A program made the position numbers and the translations under genes. A DNA stretch of 64,000 nt, taken from NCBI GenBank assembly GCA_964016885.1, contig OZ024749.1, positions 16,058,001 through 16,122,000 on the forward strand. Reading direction: 5' to 3'. The notes below the pieces were generated by a model. That model was not told where the DNA came from. It worked only from the letters and a program-made list of their open reading frames with translations, and made no database searches. The DNA is from Eledone cirrhosa. Its lineage: Eukaryota. How positions within the stretch are numbered: the stretch's first letter is position 1; each line of letters starts with the position of its first letter. Positions 5,222 to 52,410 of this stretch are shown in pieces.

Positions 5222-5904
5222 GTGTATATGTATTGTATATGTATGTATGTATGTATGTATGTGTGTATGTATATGTGTGTGTACATGAATATATATTTAT
5301 ATTTATATATATTTATATTTTTAATATATGTGTGTGTGTTTTTATGTGTGTATATGTGTTTGTGTGTGTGTTTATGGTTGCGCGTAAGTGTGTGAGTGAG
5401 TATGTGTTTTTTTGTTTTTTTGTTTTTTTGTTTTTTTGTGAATGTGTCTGTTGATTTTTGGCATAAAGTTGATTAGTTTAAGAGAAGTTCGAAGATAATA
5501 GTAAGATATGCACTCAGTATTTTGAATCTGTCTGCAGAATTCTCTAGACCTTTGTCACTTAGTAGAACCTTAATGACTTTAGCTTTTAAAGAATCTCCCT
5601 TTTCTTTAATTCTATCGACCATGACTGACCCCCCACTGACTTTATAGACATCTGTTAGCTTAAGAGAAACTTATTGACAAGGAATGGTATGCCATCCGGA
5701 ACCTGTTTATAGAATTCTGTCTGCCTTTGTTACTCTAAAAACATAAATAAATATAAATAAAAATAAAAATAAACTATAGCTTTGTAGAATTAGCTTTTAA
5801 TGAATTCCCTTTTCTATCAACCAATGACCTGCACCCATCCCACTCCCCACCCTCTCCTACCACTTGTAGAGACCTATAAATACCATATTTATTTTTTGAT
5901 ACCC

Positions 5905-5955
5905 AGATTCCTGATGATTTCTAATGAATGAAACAGTTCTAGTCCTGTAGAATCT
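5905..5955 (+). ncRNA. Type I hammerhead ribozyme at PLE 3' end
   Basis: agattc CTGATGA tttctaatgaat GAAA cag ttctagtc ctg TA gaatct: 6-bp helix I, helix III acag/ctgt, GUA site. Confidence 0.8.
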
Positions 5956-5970
5956 CTTCTATATTAAAAC

Positions 5971-6037
<67 letters not shown>

Positions 6038-6045
<8 letters not shown>

Positions 6046-6770
6046 CGTAAAATAAGAAAATTATAAAATTAACTTACTTACTAAAATATCACTTCCAACT
6101 AATTAGTTTCTGGAATGGAATAAATATATTTTCCGAAGAAAACATAGAGAATCATTCCGTCGTCACCCACAAAGTTACTAAGACAAAACCTATATATTTG
6201 CTAGCATTGATATGCATCTGTATGTATATATATGTTACTAGATATTAATTCTTTATAATTATCTCCAAATTATTTGTTGAGCAATATTGGCCATGACTGC
6301 TGCTATGGTAGCAGGCAGGCCGCTGTCTTATTAGCAAACCACTTTCCACTGATTGACCTCGATGTCACGTGATTGATTCTTTTTGAATTTGCCACCGACG
6401 CAGAGGCAGTGATTTTCTCCATGGCTAGGAATTCAGTCCACGCTTTGCTATTTTCTATCCACTGAATTATTTTTTATAAGTTTCCAGAGTCCACGCTTTG
6501 CCTGGATATTTGATGAGAATAGTCTTCCCTGACGACGGAATGATTCTCCATGTTTTCTTCGGAAAATATATTTATTCCATTCCAGAAACTAATTAGTTGG
6601 AAGTGATATTTTAGTAAGTAAGTTAATTTTATAATTTTCTTATTTTACGTCTCTCATATTATTGTTCTGCAACCCCATGCATTGAACCACAAAGTTACTA
6701 AGACAAAATCTATATATTTGCTAGCATTGATATGCATCTGTATGTATATATATGTTACTAGATATTAATT

Positions 6771-6775
<5 letters not shown>
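6038..6775 (+). mobile_element. Non-coding retrozyme-like unit (520 nt period, ~1.17 copies) preceded by an inverted fragment
   Basis: ccacaaagttactaagac occurs at 6167 and again at 6687. 6038-6165 is the reverse complement of an internal segment. Flanks are (TA)n. Confidence 0.8.
6524..6603 (+). ncRNA. Type I hammerhead ribozyme, palindromic helix III
   Basis: cttcc CTGACGA cggaatg...cattcca GAAA ctaattag TT ggaag. Confidence 0.85.
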
Positions 6776-6812
<37 letters not shown>

Positions 6813-6899
6813 ACTGGAGGTAATATCCGTAGTGGGAGAGCACTCAGTCCATGGGACGAGTTAGGTAGAAGTGGTTACACAACAGTTAGTTCACCATAC

Positions 6900-6937
6900 C
6901 GAGAACAATTGTTTCACCTTAGCGGGTCCTCAGCTCG
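6900..6937 (-). ncRNA. Minimal type I hammerhead ribozyme
   Basis: Minus strand: cgag CTGAGGA cccgctaaggt GAAA caattg TT ctcg. Confidence 0.8.
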
Positions 6938-6995
6938 TAATGGACATGGTTATACGGAACAGGAAGGATAACGGTAGGGTTGTCCTTCCTGTTCC

Positions 6996-7045
<50 letters not shown>

Positions 7046-7338
7046 GTAGTATCTATTTCATACTATTAACCTTATTTGAAAATAAATCTGACCAAGAATG
7101 CCTTTTGTGAAAATCAGTCATGTGGAACTATTGTCATCTTGCCTGACGGTTTGAACCTTACAGAACCACCTGCCTCTTTGAGGTCAAATACCAATCTACT
7201 ACCATCTACAAACTGACCAATGAGAATCAAGACTATTCCTGCTGACAACATCAAAGTATTCCTAACAAGCTCATATGTCCCAAGGCTCTGTACCATCAAC
7301 ACTATACACACAGAGCTGGCATATCTAAGGACTGACTA

Positions 7339-7394
7339 ACTGCCTGATGAGGTCATAGCCATTCAATGGCTATCATCGAAATATATATAGCAGT
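7339..7394 (+). ncRNA. Type I hammerhead ribozyme
   Basis: actgc CTGATGA ggtcatagccattcaatggctatcatc GAAA tatata TA gcagt. Confidence 0.85.
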
Positions 7395-7435
7395 AAATAA
7401 AGGATTATAAGTTCATGCAATTGACTTATGTTTCG

Positions 7436-7506
<71 letters not shown>

Positions 7507-7513
<7 letters not shown>

Positions 7514-8355
7514 AGAATTAATATCTAGTAACATATCAATGCTAGCAAATATATAGGTTTAGTCTTAGTAACTTTGTGGTTCAATGCATGGGGTTGCAGA
7601 ACAATAATATGAGAGACGTAAAATAAGAAAATTATAAAATTAACTTACTTACTAAAATATCACTTCCAACTAATTAGTTTCTGTAATGGAATAAATGGTG
7701 GCAAATTCAAAAAGAATCAATCACGTGACATCGAGGTTAATCAGTGGAAAGTGGTTTGCTAATAAGACAGCGGAAGAGAGTTGGAAGTGATATTTTAGTA
7801 AGTAAGTTAATTTTATAATTTTCTTATTTTACGTCTCTCATATTATTGTTCTGCAACCCCATGCATTGAACCACAAAGTTACTAAGACAAAACCTATATA
7901 TTTGCTAGCGTTGATATGCATCTGTATGTATATATATGTTACTAGATATTAATTCTTTATAATTATCTCCAAATTATTTGTCGAGCAATATTGGCCATGA
8001 CTGCTGCTATGGTAGCAGGCAGGCCGCTGTCTTATTAGCAAACCACTTTCCACTGATTAACCTCGATGTCACGTGATTGATTCTTTTTGAATTTGCCATC
8101 GACGCAGAGGCAGTGATTTTCTCAATGGCTAGGAATTCAGTTCACGCTTTGCTATTTTCTATCCACTGAATTATTTTTTAATAAGTTTCCAGAGTCCACG
8201 CTTTGCCTGGATACTTAGATGTGAATAGTCTTCCCTGACGACGGAATGATTCTCCATGTTTTCTTCGGAAAATATATTTATTCCATTCCAGAAACTAATT
8301 AGTTGGAAGTGATATTTTAGTAAGTAAGTTAATTTTATAATTTTCTTATTTTACG

Positions 8356-8362
<7 letters not shown>
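7507..8362 (+). mobile_element. Second copy of the 520-nt retrozyme-like unit in a different permutation, with an inverted, internally deleted 5' part
   Basis: ttggaagtgatattttag occurs at 7781 and 8303. 7507-7772 is the reverse complement of unit pieces. Flanks are (TA)n. Confidence 0.8.
8230..8309 (+). ncRNA. Type I hammerhead ribozyme (same as 6524)
   Basis: cttcc CTGACGA...GAAA ctaattag TT ggaag. Confidence 0.85.
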
Positions 8363-8450
<88 letters not shown>

Positions 8451-11024: not shown

Positions 11025-11489
11025 TTATTCAAAATATTAACAAATAAAAGATATTCTCATAATCAAAATATATACTTAATTATATATATTTCAAAGGTAC
11101 TGTGTTGTTTTTTCAGTACGTCCTCATCAGACAAAATATATGATTTGATATATGACATACCGCTACGGTCTTGATCACTCAATTCCAGAATATAACATCT
11201 CTACTAATACTGCAATTGAATGATCAAGACCGTAGCGGTATGTCATATATCAAATCATATATTTTGTCTGATGATTCTATTATGTTTTCGCATTTTCTCA
11301 TTATTAGGGTATAAATGTTGAGTTTTCTCATAAGTTAATCACTACCTTGATTAACCTTAATCATTTAACATCTCAGGGTATGTCATGTATCATTTTATTT
11401 TATCTGATGAGGACGTACTGTTGTACCTCTGAAATATGTATAATAAAATTTAATTGATCACAGCAACATCTATTTTATTAATATTTGTA

Positions 11490-11641: not shown

Positions 11642-12113
11642 ATAAAGTATATATCCCTACACGCAAAAAGCGTCCATTAACACATAAATTAACGAGCCAG
11701 AACATATATAATCAAGGTTTAGCAAATAAGAAAAAGTTTCAAAATAAATTTCAAAAAGTTCACTGTACTCACTATGGTTACCTTTACCGAATCGGTTTCG
11801 AGTCTCAAAAATAAATGGACAGTCCTTGCGGCCTTCCATTGAAATGATAAACTCTCGTCAGAAGGTTCTTTTCACTCATTCTCATCTCGGGAACAATTTT
11901 GAATAGCGCCAGTTCGTAATTTGAACTCGGGAATTTTATATTCTCCGAGTGAAAAGAACCTTCTGACGAGAGTTTATCTTTTTAATGGAAGGCCGCAAGG
12001 ACTGTCCATTTATTTTTGAGACTCGAAACCGTTTCGGTAAAGGTAACCATAGTGAGTACAGTGAATTTTTTGAAATTTATTTTGAAACTTTTTCTTATTT
12101 GCTAAAGCTTGAT

Positions 12114-40925: not shown

Positions 40926-41217
40926 ATATATATACACATCAATATATATGCATATCAATATATATATATACCTGTCAATATATATACCCATCAATATATA
41001 TATACACATAGCAATATATATATATATACCTATCAATATATACTCATCAATATATATACATGTCAATATATATATATATATATACATGGAAAGTTATATT
41101 TAAAATTGTTGTGTTACAACTAGTAAATATTTATAACTGATATAAAAGCACTCGACAAATATTTGGAGTATATTTACAATATTAAATAAATGGAAACTAT
41201 ATTTATAAAACCATATT

Positions 41218-41283
41218 TATTTCATTATATATATTTCGGGGATATCATATTAACAATATGCTATGCCTTCCTCAGACAAAATA
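41218..41283 (-). ncRNA. Type I hammerhead ribozyme
   Basis: Reverse complement of 44931-44996. Confidence 0.8.
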
Positions 41284-42703
41284 CAATATAAACAGTTTTA
41301 TAGATAAATAGATTCGACATACCGTTATAACACCGACTTCCATTTGAAGAGGTTTAAGCTGGCAGTGAAAACATTTTACACAGAGAGAAAGAAAGAGAGA
41401 AAAAAGAAAGAAAGACAGAAAACGAAGAAAAGGAAGAAAAAGAAGAAATGCATGGAACAAAATAGAGAGATGGAAAGATAGATAAAGCGAAGAACTTCAT
41501 GTAAAGAAACAGAAAGAGATATATATATAGAGAGAGAGAGGAAATAGAGATAGATACATATATATATAGAAAATTAGGTAGTGGGAGGTCATTTTGAGTA
41601 AATGTATCAATGATACATTTATTTATTTATTTATTTATTTAGCTCAAGTATTAATGTAAGGGAGATATATAGAGAGAAAAATATAGAGAGAGGAAAAAAT
41701 AACGAGAGAAAAAAATTTAAAAATAGCCAGATATATTCGAGGCGTAAAAACCCTATGTTTTAATGTATTAGTATTTATAAAACTTACACTATATTGTAAA
41801 TATCAGTATTCCTGAATGAGACAAGTATCCATAGTGTGTGAAAATTAATTATCTTATGTTTAGTTTTAAAAAAAATTCATATGTTTATGTGACAGCTACA
41901 AACATCCATGTGAATCCACATGATTCACTCTGCAAACTCTAAGTTCACGGAAAACATTCTCAATGTGGTATAAAAATTTGAGCATACATATATGTGTATT
42001 ATTATTCCTGTCTTTACTCTACAAGATTATCTATCAAGCAGAAATAGAGAGCAGATTTCAATATACTAATAAAAATATATATCAGAAACAAAACTAAAAA
42101 AATAAAAAGATAACAATAATAATAATAAGTAAAAATAAGTAATAATAAAATAGAAAACTAAAAAAATATTACGAAAGAATATTACATAATAAAAATATTA
42201 CATATTAAAAATATTACGTATTAAAAAATATTACGTATTAAAAATTTACATATTAAAGATATTAAAAATAAAAATAAAAAATAAAAAATATTATAAAATA
42301 CTACAATAATAAAAAATAAAAATAAAAATAAACCACAAAGATCAACCCTTCAAAGTTAATTGACAATATATTGCCAAGTTCATTACAAGACAAAGCCAAA
42401 AATTATCTATCAAATCAGATCTAGCAAAGATCATTTCAAAAAGTTTATGATGTCCAAATTGGTCTACATATGTTCTTATATTTAATATAGAAGTTTATCT
42501 AGTGTAAGGTTTATTCAAAAAATTTGGAGCATCAGCTTTTAGGGTAGCTTAATTTTTCATGAGGAATGTTTAAATAAAAATAAAATAAAAATAAACAATA
42601 AAAAAAAGAATAAAAAGAAGGAATCAAAAATTTAGGAATCAAAAATTTATCGGCTAGTTTCCCATATAAATATAAATCAAACTAAATATACTACATTTTA
42701 AAT

Positions 42704-43512
42704 GCTGATAAGATTGTGTACATAGATAATGATAGACAAACTAAACAAAGTAACAACTTTTTTAATTACGGCAACAACATTAACAACTATAATAGAAAGC
42801 ATTACAATAATTCCAAAGGCCAAAAAAGAAATAGAACTAGGAACATAATTTGGTTTGCCCCCCCCCTTTCTCACTAAACATTAAAACCCACATCGCTAAA
42901 TTATTTTTCAAAGCTCTTGATAATCGCTTCCCTAGAACACATAGGTATCACTCAATTTTCAATAGGCATACAATTAAATTAACCTACTCATCCACCAAAA
43001 ATTTAGCACAAAATATTAATAGAATAAATAATAGGAACTTAAAACCTAGTGATAATAGCATAAATAATATACAAGTTAACAAATGTAACTGTAGAGATAG
43101 ATCTAAATGTCCGTTAAATAACAACTGCTTAGTTAAAAATATAGTATACAATTGTAATGTTAATACTGACTCTAATTCTTTTAACTACGTCGGTTCCACA
43201 TCGACGGAATTTAAACTTCGCTATAATAACCACAAGAATTCTTTCACAGATCCAAGTAAAAAATCTTCAACGGCACTATCAGGCGTACTCTGGCAACTTA
43301 AGCTAGATAACGTTAGATATTCGACGGCTTGGAATATAGTCTCAAGAGGGATTCCTTTTAATTCATCCTCTGAGACATGTGACCTCTGCGCAGAGGAGAT
43401 ATTCTTTATACTAAAATCTAAAAATTCTCTTAACCTACGGACAAATTTATTCAGTTGTTGCAAACATAGATTAAACTCAACGTTTAAATATAAATTTAAA
43501 TTTAAAATGTAG
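42704..43512 (+). pseudogene. PLE linker, Cys-rich Zn finger and GIY-YIG endonuclease, frameshifted at a poly-C run near 42860
   Basis: RTRNIIWF/PPFS...IFNRHTIKLTYS...CNCRDRSKCPLNNNC...IVYNCNV...YVGSTSTEFKLRYNNH...CDLCAEE...LNLR...CKH. The ORF track frame 42850-43512 covers most of it. Confidence 0.92.
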
Positions 43513-44930
43513 TATATTTAGTTTGATTTATATTTATATGGGAAACTAGCCGATAAATTTTTGATTCCTAAATTTTTGATTCCTTCTTTTTATTCTTTTT
43601 TTATTGTTTATTTTTATTTTATTTTTATTTAAACATTCCTCATGAAAAATTAAGCTACCCTAAAAGCTGATGCTCCAAATTTTTTGAATAAACCTTACAC
43701 TAGATAAACTTCTATATTAAATATAAGAACATATGTAGACCAATTTGGACATCATAAACTTTTTGAAATGATCTTTGCTAGATCTGATTTGATAGATAAT
43801 TTTTGGCTTTGTCTTGTAATGAACTTGGCAATATATTGTCAATTAACTTTGAAGGGTTGATCTTTGTGGTTTATTTTTATTTTTATTTTTTATTTTTTAT
43901 TATTGTAGTATTTTATAATATTTTTTATTTTTTATTTTTATTTTTAATATCTTTAATATGTAAATTTTTAATACGTAATATTTTTTAATACGTAATATTT
44001 TTAATATGTAATATTTTTATTATGTAATATTCTTTCGTAATATTTTTTTAGTTTTCTATTTTATTATTACTTATTTTTACTTATTATTATTATTGTTATC
44101 TTTTTAATTTTTTAGTTTTGTTTCTGATATATATTTTTATTAGTATATTGAAATCTGCTCTCTATTTCTGCTTGATAGATAATCTTGTAGAGTAAAGACA
44201 GGAATAATAATACACATATATGTATGCTCAAATTTTTATACCACATTGAGAATGTTTTCTGTGAACTTAGAGTTTGCAGAGTGAATCATGTGGATACGCA
44301 TGGATGTTTGTAGCTGTCACATAAACATATGAATTTTTTTTAAAACTAAACATAAGATAATTTATTTTCACACACTATGGATACTTGTCTCATTCAGGAA
44401 TACTGATATTTTCAATATAGTGTAAGTTTTATAAATACTAATACATTAAAACATAGGGTTTTTACGCCTCGAATATATCTGGCTATTTTTAAATTTTTTT
44501 CTCTCGCTATTTTTTCCTCTCTCTATATTTTTTCTCTATATATATATCTCCCTTACATTAATACTTGAGCTAAATAAATAAATAAATAAATAAATGTATC
44601 ATTGATACATTTACTCAAAATGACCTCCCACTACCTAATTTTCTATATATATATGTATCTATCTCTATTTCCTCTCTCTCTCTATATATATATATCTCTT
44701 TCTGTTTCTTTACATGAAGTTCTTCGCTTTATCTATCTTTCCATCTCTCTATTTTGTTCCATGCATTTCTTCTTTTTCTTCCTTTTCTTCGTTTTCTCTC
44801 TTTCTTTCTTTTTTCTCTCTTTCTTTCTCTCTGTGTAAAATTTTTTCACTGCCAGCTTAAACCTCTTCAAATGGAAGTCGGTGTTATAACGGTATGTCGA
44901 ATCTATTTATCTATAAAACTGTTTATATTG

Positions 44931-44996
44931 TATTTTGTCTGAGGAAGGCATAGCATATTGTTAATATGATATCCCCGAAATATATATAATGAAATA
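44931..44996 (+). ncRNA. Type I hammerhead ribozyme at PLE 3' end
   Basis: tattttgt CTGAGGA aggcatagcatattgttaatatgatatcccc GAAA tatata TA atgaaata. Confidence 0.8.
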
Positions 44997-45322
44997 AATA
45001 TGGTTTTATAAATATAGTTTCCATTTATTTAATATTGTATATATATATATATATATATATACATATCAATATATATACACATTTGGATGATGAAGCTGGT
45101 GAATTGAAGTATGTCTAGAGTTTTTGCAGAATTAAATTTCCAATCTGGCCTTCTGTTGTGGTTGTTATTGCCCCAACAACTGGATAACACATCGACGATG
45201 GACGATCTGCATAACGCCGAGTGCTTTAATTTTTACATCATCATTTAATAACCTGAATCACCAATCCCACCCATTGGTAAACAACAGAAAATAAATGGTA
45301 TATATGTCTGCGTGTGTGTGTG

Positions 45323-47174: not shown

Positions 47175-49050
47175 TTATCTCCAGCCTGTATAGGTTGGCC
47201 ACTGGCGTAAGAGGGAGTTTGTTGCTGCTGCCCTTAGGTTTCCCTCGTGTCTTGCTGTGGGCTCATCAGGGATCCTGGATAACAAGGTGTCGAGATGTTT
47301 CTTAAAGACATCCACCTCCACGTCATGCAAGTCTCTCAGATCCCTCGACAGCCTGTTGAAGAGTTGAGGGCCCTTGAATCCCAGGCTATTGCAATACCTG
47401 CTCCTTATTCTAGATGTGGAAGACGGGACCTTTGGCACCACACAGTGACGTCCTGTTCGACGGTTGGTCCAGTTCCCAATGCCAAAGTTTGGTGCTAGTC
47501 CCTCCAGGATTTTCCACATGTAGATTACTGCGTATCTCTCCCGTCTTCGCTCCAAGGAGTAGAGGTTCAGTTCCTTTAGCCTCTCCCAGTAGCTTGTCTC
47601 CCTCATCTTGGCAATCCTCTTGGTGTAGCTTCGCTGGATTGCCTCAAGCTCCGTGGTTAGTTTGACACTATGGGGTGACCACAACTGGGAGCAGTAGTCC
47701 AGGCGGCTTAGGACAAAAGACCTCCACAGTGTCAACATGGTGTCTCGATCTCTTGTCCGGAAAGTCCTCAAGATCCAGCCAGCGAGTCGTTTGCACATTG
47801 TCGCCACTTTCATGATGTGTGAAGAAAAAGATGCATCATCGCTCATGTCTATGCCCAGGTCTCGTATCGATTTTGATACGGGGATATCGGTCCCTCCTGG
47901 TCCTGTATAGCTGTGTTCCACTATATTTGTGTTTGCAGGTTTGTATTGTAGGGCTTGGAATTTGCCAGCATTAAACTGCATGTTGTTTTCTTCCGCCCAT
48001 TTGTATATGGCATCCAGATCCTGCTGTAAAAGGGCAGCGTCAGCCGGGTTTTTGATTGCCTGTGCTACCTTAGTGTCATCAGCATAGCTAGTGAGGGATG
48101 TTGTTGCATGCACCACAGAGGGAATGTCCGAGAGAGCCACCAAAAACAGTAGTGGTCCCAGGACTGTCCCCTGGGGCACCCCACTTGTTATTGGTGTTTC
48201 CCTCGAGAGGGCCCCATTTGCTGCGACTGCCTGGCTTCTGTCCCTTAGGAAGCCATGCAGCCACTCACCTACTTTTCCAGTTATGCCGAGTCCGTGTAGT
48301 TTGTGACATATTCCGCGGTCGACCTTGTCAAAGGCCTTCGCAAAGTCAAGATATATCACGTCCACATGTGAGCTGTCTAGTAGTTGTCTCAGTACCCAGT
48401 CGTAGTGATGTAGCAGCTGTGTAAGGCAGCTTCTTCCTGGGCGGAAGCCATGTTGCGTGCTAGTCAGGCGGTCATTTTCCTCGAGGAAAGTGATTAGTTT
48501 CTTTCTGACGACTCGCTCCATGACCTTACTGATATGCGATGTCAGGGAGACTGGCCTATAGTTCTTGGCCTCCGCTCTACTACCTCCTTTATGGATAGGG
48601 CATATTGTGCCTTCTTTCAGCTCCCTGGGTAGTACAGCGCTAGCCAAGGATCTTCTGAAGAGCATCTTCAGTGGAGTTGCTAAGGCCTGCTTACATATTT
48701 TTAAGAGAACTGCTGGGAATCCATCAGGTCCAGCAGCCGAGTCTGTTCTAATTTCATCAATAGCGTACACCACATCCTCCTCCGTTATGTCTATGTGGTT
48801 GATGGTTGCCATTTCTTCATGTAGTGTTGTGGCATCAAAGAACTCCTCTGGCTTCGTTATTTGCATGTGCCTCAGTGGACATGTGAACACACTTTTGTAC
48901 TGTTCGTTCAGTATTTCACATATCTCTTGGGGGTTTTCGGTTAATGAACCGTCCGTGTGGAAGAGTGGCCCAATCTTGCAGTGTACTGAGGCAGTTTCTT
49001 TTGCCAATTTAAAGAAGGCCTTAGGGTTTGTTTTAATGTTTTCTATGAAC
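47175..49050 (-). pseudogene. LINE ORF2 reverse transcriptase domain
   Basis: AAGPDG, NYRPVSLTS, QHGFRPGRSCLTQLL, YLDFAKAFDKV, SGVPQGTVLGPLLF, YADD, and C-terminal YWERLKELNLYSLERRRER. It is separated from the APE frame by one frameshift near 49050-49065. Confidence 0.95.
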
Positions 49051-50206
49051 TGTGCTCTTTCTTTTCCCTCTCATTCTCATGGGAAAGTTTGAGTGCAATC
49101 TCGGTGTCAAGTAGTGCACGTTTCAAATAGGATTCCTTCTTGTTTTTGTTATGTTGACTATTCAACTGGTTTGAGAGTTTAGTTCTACGTCTCATAAGGA
49201 TTTTCCTATCTCTGGGAATAAGATTTTTGTGTCTGTTTGCCTCTTTTTCCGGGACAAACTTTTTGCATATAGTGTGTATCGTTGTCATGAAGTGTTGAAA
49301 GTGTGTGTTAGTGTCTTGTGTGGCGGTGTTTTCACTCCATGTTTGCTTCCGGATTTCACTCTTAATCTTTTTCCAGTTAGCCTTGTAGAAGTTAAGGCTG
49401 GATAGCGTCCCGGAGCTTCTTGGTGGTTTTGGCTCCGTTGGTTCTCTTGGACCACATATCATTAGCTCTACTAAGTTATGATCCGAGAGAATTGTTGGTG
49501 TCACCTTTACATTGTGGATGAGCACTTCTTTGTTTGTAAAACAGAGGTCCAGGACATTTTCGCCTCTTGTTGGGAGGAGTATTGCTTGCTCCATGAACAG
49601 CCTGTGTGTGAGGGCCAGCAGGGATTCCGTCTGTCTCTGTTCTATTGACGTCATTCCAGGGAGGAGGTGGCCCTCAGGCCATTTGACCTTTGGTAGGTTG
49701 AAGTCTCCTAGCAGTAGGATGTTGAGACCCTGGTCCAGTTTGTCAAGGACCTCTTCTATCCTACTTAGGCTATCCTCAAATTTACCCTCATGACTGGGGG
49801 CATCGGGCGGCCGATATGTGACACATATTACTGTCTGTAGTTGCTTCATATGTATTATCAGTGTGTCACAGACTGAGTTTGGATGTGTCAACAGTACAAT
49901 TGGTGTGACATCTTCACGGATATACAGAGCAAGCCCACCATGAGTTCTCTCCTTCCTGTCCGAACGAAATACAGTATATTTCGGTATATGTATTTCTGCA
50001 TCTGCTATATTGCTTGTCAGGTGCGTTTCGGTTAGTGCCATGCATAGTGCTTGATTGCTTATGGCTAAGTCTCCCAGGTAGGAAATTTTACTCATGTTAC
50101 TGAATCTCACCAGGCCTCTGACATTCAGCAGCAGCACTGGTGTGACTTTTGGGGTGCCAGTAATGGCTGTCGGTATGACACCTGGTCTGGTGTCAGCGGC
50201 GGCCAC
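49043..50206 (-). pseudogene. LINE ORF2 apurinic-like endonuclease (APE) domain and linker
   Basis: LLNVRGL, ALTETHL, GGLALYI, YRPP, LLGDFNLP, LDLCFTN and SDHNLV motifs. Confidence 0.95.
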
Positions 50207-50772
50207 TCTGGGTCCCTTAACTGTGGTGGTCTCGAGTGCTGGTGTGGATGACCCTGGCTCTGGAGACGATGCAGCCAGGTCAGCTGTCCCACAATCTTCT
50301 CTGCCATCACTAAAAGTTTTTTCTGCTCTGCTGCTGCCATCTGTATCTCGTCGGCATGTGCGTGCCTTCTCCTTGTTGGTGCGGCACGCGCGACATCACC
50401 ATACTTCTGGAGCGGCTTATTTCGGCTTTGGCTGGGGCATGTTGCGCGAGTATGATGGGCATAGTTCGTTTGAGACCTAGGGTGGGCGAATCTGCATCCC
50501 ATCCCTGTCTCTCCATGCCAGCATGTCCCGTTCTTGAAAAACTTGCACATTACTTGGGGTTTTTTGCTCCCAGTGTCTCGGTGCTTTCTGTTCTTCCTTT
50601 GAACAGTTGTCCACTGGTCCCTCTGCGGTTGGTTCTCCTTCGGAAGGTGATTTCGCTTTTCACCTTTGCCCTTTGCTTGTTGGTTGCCCGGCCTGCCCTC
50701 CCTGCCTGTGGCGGAGGGTATATCATTTTCTTTCAGGTCCGTGCTTGTTCTCTCCTCCTTTTCTTTTTCCCT
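50125..50772 (-). pseudogene. LINE ORF1 C-terminal part with CCCH-type zinc finger
   Basis: The frame is open from the (TA)n boundary: [10 protein letters not shown]...[12 protein letters not shown]...CKFFKNGTCWHGETGMGCRFAHP. Confidence 0.75.
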
Positions 50773-51063: not shown

Positions 51064-51134
51064 TGTTTTATCTGATGAAAACACAAATATTATTGTTTGA
51101 TGATGTTTGTTTTTGAAATGCGCATAATAAAATA
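51064..51134 (+). ncRNA. Type I hammerhead ribozyme in a solo copy (51005-51262) of the 20591 family
   Basis: tgttttat CTGATGA aaac...gttttt GAAA tgcgca TA ataaaata. Confidence 0.82.
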
Positions 51135-51570: not shown

Positions 51571-51775
51571 TAGGGAAAAAGAAAAGGAGGAGAGAACAAG
51601 CACTGACCTGAAAGAAAATGATATACCCTCCGCCACAGGCAGGGAGGGCAGGCCGGGCAACCAACAAGCAAAGGGCAAAGGTGAAAAGCGAAATCACCTT
51701 CCGAAGGAGAACCAAGCGCAGAGGGACCGGTGGACAACTGTTCAAAGGAAGAACAGAAAGCACCAAGACACTGGG
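51571..51775 (+). mobile_element. Inverted second copy of the LINE ORF1 5' segment fused to the PLE fragment
   Basis: Reverse complement of 50568-50772 with about 4 substitutions. Confidence 0.9.
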
Positions 51776-52410
51776 CACGTATCAGGAACAAATGCACCGA
51801 CGCTAGAGACCGAGACACACACACCACACATTTCCTGGAAGTACTCAAACTGAACGGATACACGACATCCACCACAAACCGTGCCAGAAAGAACAGAGGA
51901 CACTACACCCGAGGCACTAACACCTGCTTCCTGAAGCTCCCACACTTCAGTGAAGAAACAACAACAGCCATCCGCAGAGCCATCAGACGAGAGGGACTGG
52001 ATATCCAACTGGCCCACTCGGGTCCTTCTCTGCGCGGACGGCTGGCCAAGAGACACTCCACCAGACATGACAACTGCTGCAGACTAGTCAACTGCCCCAT
52101 CAACGACACAGACCTATGTCACCAGGCTTACGTCGTATACAGACTAGAGTGTGACAAATGCAACAACTTCTACGTAGGTAGCACCACCAGACCACTCCAC
52201 ATAAGAATAAAAGAACACCTCAATAATAACGCTTCCTCATTTAAGAAACACCTAGTTAAATGCAAAAACACCGACAAAACCATAACAGTTAGGATAGAAA
52301 CTAAGGAAAGAAACCTCGGCAATCTTAGAATTAAGGAAGCACTAATTATAGATAAAACACAACCACCAATCAATAATAGACTAGAACTCAACACCCAATT
52401 TATAACCTGA
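51776..52410 (+). pseudogene. PLE RT-thumb/linker and GIY-YIG endonuclease
   Basis: LKLNGY...FLKLPH...CCRLVNCPI...C...VVYRLECDKCNNFYVGSTTRPLHIRIKEH...IKEALII...PPINNRLE. Confidence 0.92.

Follow-up and report, generated by a model that had tools for sequence, protein, structure and literature searches.

A non-coding 522-nt hammerhead element of Eledone cirrhosa with two fixed 3' ends in inverted pairs, likely moved by Penelope-like machinery

Two blocks of related non-coding sequence lie close together in a 64,000-nt stretch of the Eledone cirrhosa genome (GCA_964016885.1, contig OZ024749.1, forward-strand positions 16,058,001 to 16,122,000; the whole of this stretch is hereafter the window), and they raise the question of which template and which machinery produced them. 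A sequence-only reading had described each block as a longer-than-unit copy of a unit of about 520 nt, starting at a different point in each, and had taken the differing permutations as the trace of reverse transcription around a circular or concatemeric RNA. Each block is an insertion in its own right of a non-coding mobile element, 522 bases long and present in high copy number, that carries a hammerhead motif. We number the unit from c1, the first base 3' of the predicted cleavage site (window position 7783), and use 7783–8304 (522 nt) as the reference monomer; by arm we mean a run of unit sequence taken in the sense of the ribozyme, and by lap a single pass through the unit.

The first insertion opens with a minus-strand arm at 6036–6165 that runs from c454 to c61 (130 nt) and in which the hammerhead is cut short on its 5' side. 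It is followed at 6167–6777 by a plus-strand arm of 611 nt (1.17 units), which extends from c89 through c522 to c179 and contains a type I hammerhead at 6524–6603 (plus strand; predicted cleavage between 6598 and 6599, after GUU). The end of this arm (6661–6777, plus strand), corresponding to about c62–c179, or the 118 nt between the two termini considered below, forms a tail at the outer end of the plus-strand arm only. The second insertion begins with a minus-strand arm at 7507–7773 that has the far terminus (c179–181) and consists of three pieces, c181–152, c136–494 and then a jump to c316–242. Five bases matching neither arm (7774–7778) separate it from a plus-strand arm of 587 nt at 7779–8365, which comprises c519–c522, the whole monomer at 7783–8304 and then c1–c61, with a type I hammerhead at 8230–8309 (plus strand; predicted cleavage between 8304 and 8305). 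Each plus-strand arm holds one whole hammerhead, that of the second insertion adding the 3' end of another. The plus-strand arm of the first insertion re-enters its own first sequence at 6687 (period 520; redundancy of 91 nt, 98.9% identical) and that of the second does so at 8301 (period 522; 65 nt, 100% identical); the two copies are 98.0% identical over 495 nt, and the longest stop-to-stop frame inside the units is at most 59 codons.

The repeated unit of about 520 nt, the longer-than-unit copies with their coordinates, and the single intact hammerhead and lack of an ORF in each unit had thus been read correctly, as had the (TA)n borders, which lie at 5971–6039 and 6774–6809 for the first insertion and at 7440–7512 and 8362–8447 for the second. 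The run at 5971–6039 is also the end of an unrelated hammerhead element (5438–5971), and that at 7440–7512 also lies 3' of a second unrelated hammerhead (7344), so that hammerhead elements pile up in each other's target repeats. The inverted fragments said to precede the copies are present, but they prove to be full second arms with fixed ends of their own. The start of copy 2, which had been placed about 2 nt from the cleavage site, is at 7779, 4 nt upstream of it (AGTT/GGAAG, where the slash marks predicted cleavage), and this arm crosses the site. The spacer between the insertions (6810–6996) is unique and ends in a GC-richer hairpin (approx. 6953–6999) adjoining (TA)n, which is possibly the end of another small element.

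In the genome searched (3.0 Gb, 1,796 contigs), exact matches number 2,255 for a 26-nt hammerhead motif and 3,859 for a 19-nt motif from near c38–56, against 0 for reversed controls, and the family is therefore not a product of chance. Four subfamily references, 522–535 nt in length, are 83–100% identical to the window copy (83–92% for those besides it). At many loci consecutive hammerheads are 520–545 nt apart, which is the tandem-unit organization of non-LTR retrozymes; the longest arrays reach nearly five units (L115), and the five long arrays inspected (L029, L040, L053, L115 and L179) contain blocks resembling DNA duplication after insertion. None of the sampled copies has a coding body attached, in agreement with the earlier description of a non-coding, retrozyme-like hammerhead retroelement, and the unit lacks the reverse transcriptase and GIY-YIG ORF of an autonomous Penelope-like element (PLE). 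It has, on the other hand, the anatomy of a non-autonomous PLE, with partial tandems, 5' truncation, an inverted 5' copy and a tail at one end. The element is a new family of an already known class, that of non-LTR retrozymes or non-autonomous PLEs.

The hammerhead, as found by descriptor scan, is laid out as CTTCC, CTGACGA, a long stem II, GAAAC, TAATTA and GTT/GGAAG, with a C–A mismatch at the base of stem II and a short palindromic stem III. All parts of a type I core are present (CUGANGA, GAAA, NUH and three stems, with stem I open) and are nearly invariant; core position 7 is variable (C in 74 and T in 33 of 109 copies, in a sample partly chosen by a 3' motif). Canonical hammerheads have a G10.1–C11.1 pair at the base of stem II. 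That pair is absent here, C (108/109) standing opposite A (113/113); a U–U mismatch is reported at the base of stem II in an active axolotl hammerhead motif (PMC7229834). Rfam gave no hammerhead match in the window at the gathering threshold, and at E≤10 only chance matches driven by (TA)n, so that the ribozyme call rests on the descriptor scan and on covariation. The latter was assessed in 50 copies, the window copy included, 40 of which came from loci found without hammerhead-motif searches. Pairing is 93.9% in stem I, 96.7% in stem II and 98.0% in stem III, compared with 30–49% in slid controls, and stem II contains swapped pairs, one position being A–U in 30 copies, G–C in 18 and U–A in 2, and another G–C in 25 and U–A in 23. 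These swaps are inherited within subfamilies and thus represent few events rather than dozens, but they show that the fold has been kept; taken with the stem pairing and the slid controls, they argue that selection has maintained a ribozyme fold. The monomer as a whole has a folding z of −2.75 and is not rod-like (hammerhead alone, −0.85; c1–c208, −1.22). A consensus fold of c1–c190 has hairpins 5' of each terminus, but two-sided change occurs in only 3 of its 31 pairs, and structure at the candidate priming sites is accordingly not established.

The sense-strand 3' ends of the arms are fixed at two sites, 61 and 179 nt 3' of the predicted cleavage site, after which (TA)n follows. At 88 loci on contig C1, picked solely by two exact patterns, 132 of 152 segments end at c54–65 or c172–184 (66 each), and 125 of these 132 abut TA repeats; TA-rich sequence, as expected of a microsatellite or AT-rich target, lies 3' of 373 of 396 canonical ends. 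Both termini themselves end in TA-like bases, and any target-site duplication would be masked by the surrounding (TA)n. Once duplicates and edge-cut loci had been removed from all loci fetched, 272 distinct complete insertions remained, of which 103 are single-armed or same-strand and 169 are two-armed with their 3' ends (tails) facing outward. Both ends are canonical in 129 of the two-armed insertions, and these combine one c61 end with one c179 end in 127 cases, two c179 ends in 2 and two c61 ends in none, a count that covers all four subfamily references; at least one outer end is non-canonical in the other 40. Both window insertions obey this rule, the first having c61 on the minus strand and c179 on the plus strand, and the second a c179-type end on the minus strand and c61 on the plus strand. 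In 58 of the 127 pairs the c61 arm extends beyond the c179 arm by over 50 nt in the 5' direction, and in 55 the reverse holds; neither arm is a copy of the other. Arm lengths within pairs are uncorrelated (35 pairs), and 36 of 40 c179 arms extend through the c61 site.

A fixed c61 end and a fixed c179 end, together with a variable 5' end, explain the differing permutations on which the circular reading was built: plotted on the unit, the copies are not free permutations but have variable 5' ends and two fixed 3' ends, as in truncated target-primed copying. Fixed termini were also what that reading would have expected of the pseudo-LTR (pLTR) of a coding PLE, and fixed 3' termini were found, with no ORF at the sampled copies. 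The combination of fixed ends and inverted pairing is the known Penelope signature of a tail and an inverted copy, with a long tail of 118 nt. Partial tandems, an inverted 5'-truncated copy, a tail of 30–40 bp often at one end and a bias towards (TA)n are described for PLEs (PMC8557442), as is a tail on one of two inverted pLTRs (PMC3846280). With 127 of 129 insertions paired in this way, what had been described as a frequent restriction of the tail to one end becomes nearly a rule. The pairing departs from an in vitro report in which, in the portion available, the start site showed no strand difference (PMC11167929), and this departure makes it a direct test.

How far the arms extend bears on the nature of the template. 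Among 124 arms, after correction for locus selection, the mean stop rate is 0.0024 per nt, and 47 arms are longer than one unit and 8 longer than two; of the 396 arms in the full, length-biased set, 211 are longer than one unit. The cleavage site is no barrier, with 1 end in c518–c3 against 2.4 expected over about 125 passes at risk, and a start at that site, as had been read in copy 2, is thus not typical. The 5' ends are in excess at c1–26 (19 against 8.4 expected; p 0.001, uncorrected), and similarly at the AT-rich c117–145 (14 against 6.9). For second and later passes in the whole set, stops amount to 25/178 at c1–26, 14/192 at c27–52 and 8/153 at c497–522 (Fisher p 0.009). Within the 114 nt around the hammerhead, against a background of about 18%, copying ended in 27 of 96 arms on their first crossing and in 21 of 38 on their second (Fisher p 0.005); the second stop is weaker in another, length-biased sample (21 of 61 longer arms). 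Part of these peaks could come from (TA)n microhomology and hairpins. The distributions suggest finite templates, a minority of which terminate exactly at, or close to, a 5' end left by cleavage or set by transcription, more frequently a unit further upstream. At four loci on contigs C18 and C1636 (L181–L184), c442 is joined directly to c1, the first base of the predicted cleavage product; as these loci share their inner junction, they represent one event that was later duplicated. A similar skip, to c3, is seen in the other arm of L183.

Rare variants shared between arms provide a second view of the template. The comparison used 78 two-armed insertions with at least three passes per site (13,259 non-CpG sites). 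In 14 insertions, 17 rare alleles (6 of them private) are present in every pass of both arms; in 13 insertions, a further 17 occur in both arms although one or more passes lack them. Of the latter, 11 fall in the same unit in each of the two arms (9 insertions; 6 alleles private), where the frequency of rare-allele sharing between different insertions would predict 2.6 (P 9e-5). Other registers account for 6 shared alleles against 3.8 expected, three of them near mirror positions, and a reading in terms of first versus later laps was dropped, the larger set favouring the same-unit register (11 versus 6). Simple hairpin conversion is disfavoured at L008, L014, L023 and L114, where the allele is missing from the pass closer to the mirror position. 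Seven insertions (L008, L014, L125, L179, L284, L291 and L305) contain both all-lap and lap-specific alleles. Lap-specific alleles common to both arms point to a template that was often a heterogeneous multimer rather than a monomer circle, and the simplest reading would be that both arms copied one RNA with differing units and that both primers lay in the same unit. A heterogeneous dimer circle is a possible template; such a circle was also considered for a period-2 pattern in L179, and rejected there because the other arm lacks the alleles concerned. Lineages also go through a single-unit stage, as the all-lap variants show, for which the route could be a circle or DNA duplication. The proposal of copying around circular or concatemeric RNA thus stands in so far as the template was longer than the unit, as are 47 of the 124 pattern-selected arms, but a monomer circle is not needed, and cannot be the sole template since both arms share rare variants that are absent from other laps of the same insertion.

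Two rival explanations have little probability. If the repeats were the work of DNA-level processes in which RNA had no part (slippage, unequal crossing-over or fold-back synthesis), the later unit duplication seen in some long arrays would be accounted for, as would the 7 of 35 junctions at which both arms end within 15 nt of the same unit position (2.1 expected), some of them at hairpins. However, the copies are dispersed over many contigs in (TA)n, with two fixed sense 3' ends, variable 5' ends and a conserved ribozyme fold, and fold-back synthesis from the other arm cannot explain the pairs, since in 58 of 127 the c61 arm extends outside the c179 arm, which for its part invariably includes sequence beyond the c61 end; we regard a purely DNA-level origin as very improbable. 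Scarcely better placed is the view that the unit is merely the pLTR of a longer coding PLE and its copies the 5'-truncated ends. The end structure does match that of an ORF-bearing family in the same genome, and a preprint describes many vertebrate retrozymes resembling pLTRs (10.64898/2026.07.22.740005), but all long arms mapped return to the same unit upstream of the hammerhead without entering an ORF, arrays contain up to nearly five units, and 67 free 5' ends have no shared coding flank. For the sampled copies this view is largely refuted, whereas an ancestral origin of the unit from a pLTR is likely.

A stronger competitor retains the circle: the hammerhead would release a 522-nt monomer, the host would ligate it, and the circle would be the usual template around which both arms roll. 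Circles have been shown for animal retrozymes of coral, mussel and axolotl and proposed as templates for PLE or LINE enzymes (PMC7229834), and much of the present data would suit such a template, including arms that cross the cleavage site without a scar, the frequency of arms longer than one unit, the rare alleles found in all laps of both arms, and a unit length that stays at 522–535 nt across subfamily references that have diverged to 83–92% identity with the window copy. A circle predicts identical laps, though, and this is contradicted by the 11 alleles common to both arms and absent from another lap, and by the seven insertions in which both kinds of allele occur. Stops, moreover, are commoner at the second hammerhead than at the first, which on a circle are the same junction, only 8 of 124 arms exceed two units, and the five long arrays look duplicated after insertion. 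A circle as the usual template is in our judgement unlikely, and circular RNA, although possible, is not what the footprint shows best.

A coding partner for the unit was sought. No shared coding flank was found at the 67 free 5' ends or among 30 further hammerhead variants, nor did a divergent-subfamily query or a loose hammerhead pattern yield a partner. An ORF-bearing family in the same genome has frames of 747–785 aa with a GIY-YIG-type C-terminus (4,245 motif matches), and its Atlas neighbours have HTH_animal, GIY-YIG or RVT_1 domains; Pfam gave no match for the 747-aa protein. From the CxC...C..C linker before the GIY-YIG region we provisionally take this family to be Neptune-like. Its 3' non-coding region is about 1.3 kb, and its 3' ends lie approximately 50 and 139 nt after its hammerhead, giving a tail of about 89 nt; among the first 30 loci listed, 11 of 11 inverted pairs combine one short and one long end (one long end was read at 245). 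The unit shows no similarity to this one family, the genome having 71,790 first-look PLE candidates, and the ORF-bearing family would seem to be a parallel to the unit rather than its identified partner. A truncated, tail-out inverted member of it lies at about 41080–45000 of the window, with a tail on the left arm only; a fragment at 42841–43509 has the GIY-YIG-type C-terminus from 42841. The family also forms recurrent palindromic mini-insertions (L361, L375, L380 and L384) with hammerhead motifs 254–259 bp apart, centred at the same short hairpin with differing central bases.

The window contains other elements of these kinds. Fifteen further type I hammerhead-like motifs of several families were found by descriptor scan, which had no chance control, at 752(-), 5911, 7344, 10662(-), 11130(-), 11404, 11861(-), 11963, 19385, 20779(-), 30804(-), 35939(-), 41275(-), 44939 and 51072; most have (TA)n within 60–200 nt 3', and those at 11130 and 35939 look weak. 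The segments 692–1225 and 5438–5971 form a 534-nt inverted pair, 99.8% identical, with a hammerhead in each; the former has an extra tail before (TA)n that the latter lacks, and the interval between them holds some 4 kb of (AT/AC)n and (TA/TG)n repeats in a mirror-like arrangement, as though microsatellite sequence had become part of the arms by copying. A LINE-type element (47178–50395, minus strand) has AP endonuclease and RVT_1 domains, and a second GIY-YIG Penelope-like fragment (51685–52407, plus strand) adjoins the hammerhead at 51072. Positions 600–1400 of locus L266 hold tandem copies of another hammerhead unit, about 470 nt long, to which the motifs at 11861 and 11963 are related; it too ends in (TA)n and is a second retrozyme-like family.

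We consider it likely, with a probability of roughly 0.7, that the 522-nt unit is a non-coding hammerhead element with two fixed 3' ends that is moved by a PLE reverse transcriptase-endonuclease priming from both cut ends of a (TA)n target. A genomic copy longer than one unit would be transcribed, and the PLE protein would then cut both strands of the (TA)n in which the insertions are found; a PLE protein has been reported to cut the target on both strands and to extend them, its two internal start sites on the RNA marking the limits of the tail (PMC11167929). One target end would prime at c61 and the other at c179, as the observed ends and their pairing suggest. Each cDNA would extend a few hundred nt 5'-ward, mostly through the first hammerhead, and would stop more often near the one further upstream, to judge from the distributions of 5' ends. 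The cDNA ends would be joined, often with a few shared or added bases, to give the tail-out inverted pairs seen, or a single arm would be left where the other failed. Both arms would often derive from one RNA with differing units, as the lap-specific shared variants indicate, while the all-lap variants suggest that multi-unit sources are sometimes renewed from a single unit by rolling on a ligated circle, by template jumps or by DNA duplication. Several observations count against this reading. No coding partner emerged from the flanks and variants examined or from the one ORF-bearing family compared, and the stop at the second hammerhead is weaker in the length-biased sample. The 40 of 169 two-armed insertions with non-canonical outer ends weaken the pairing model; the lap-specific signal amounts to 11 alleles in 9 insertions, some of which could have been made by gene conversion between arms after insertion; the 17 all-lap alleles in 14 insertions fit the prediction of a monomer circle; and the termini are TA-like, whereas the start sites reported in PMC11167929 are not homologous to the target.

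It is tempting to speculate further that two templates alternate, an asymmetric PLE dimer normally copying a linear transcript of one to two units from both fixed sites simultaneously, and an occasional lap on a ribozyme-made circle rebuilding multi-unit sources from a single monomer. The PLE protein is a predicted dimer, and hammerhead cleavage was not needed in the system described (PMC11167929). We offer this cycle tentatively, as a possibility that is rather doubtful at present. Were it true, a lineage could only become shorter under linear copying, and the element would counter this loss of its 5' end by means of the circle; pseudo-LTR regeneration in coding PLEs might be explained in the same way, and the seven insertions with both kinds of variant would be its fossil record.

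What makes the family valuable is that two priming sites are paired almost without exception, that the tail is long and that the insertions provide evidence about the template. It offers a high-copy substrate of 522 nt, for which the preferred reading, priming by a PLE enzyme from both target ends, predicts that the c61 and c179 primers act on opposite target ends, on the same RNA and in the same unit, and it ties a retrozyme to PLE machinery through insertion anatomy. The role of circles in retrozyme movement is proposed, not shown, in the available account (PMC7229834), and the origin of tandem and inverted PLE structures has been called unresolved (PMC8557442). Neither a count of one-of-each pairing nor a test of template heterogeneity appeared in the titles and abstracts found, in a search outside which most subscription journals fall.

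The element resembles non-LTR retrozymes (PMC7229834; 10.64898/2026.07.22.740005) in being a non-coding, low-GC tandem unit with one type I hammerhead each. Its length falls within the 51–972 bp of the preprint, where retrozymes are related to pLTRs and cleavage was seen in only 1 of 9 dimers tested (10.64898/2026.07.22.740005); movement by PLEs has been proposed for such elements. It is longer than the 150–400-nt units tested for circles, and it is known here from DNA alone. It differs also in occurring mostly as arms of one to two units in inverted pairs, not in long arrays, and in that its link to PLEs comes from insertion anatomy rather than from likeness to a pLTR sequence. With EN+ PLEs (PMC8557442, PMC3846280, PMC11167929) it shares 5'-truncated partial tandems, an inverted arm, a tail at one end, AT-rich or (TA)n targets and a hammerhead just upstream of two termini, but it has no ORF, its tail is 118 nt compared with 30–40 bp in those papers, and its termini are TA-like. 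Chlamys elements such as MRC1 are likewise non-autonomous PLE derivatives with multicopy head-to-tail insertions, yet in the available account they mostly lack hammerheads and have 3' likeness to their partners (PMC8557442). The inverted arms also recall an L1 process. In L1 twin priming both target ends prime cDNA, giving a 5' inversion, the first primer acting at the poly(A) end and the second at a variable upstream site. Here, unlike in L1, each of the two sites is internal and has a fixed position, and there is wide overlap between the arms, nearly all of the c179 arms (36/40) passing c61.
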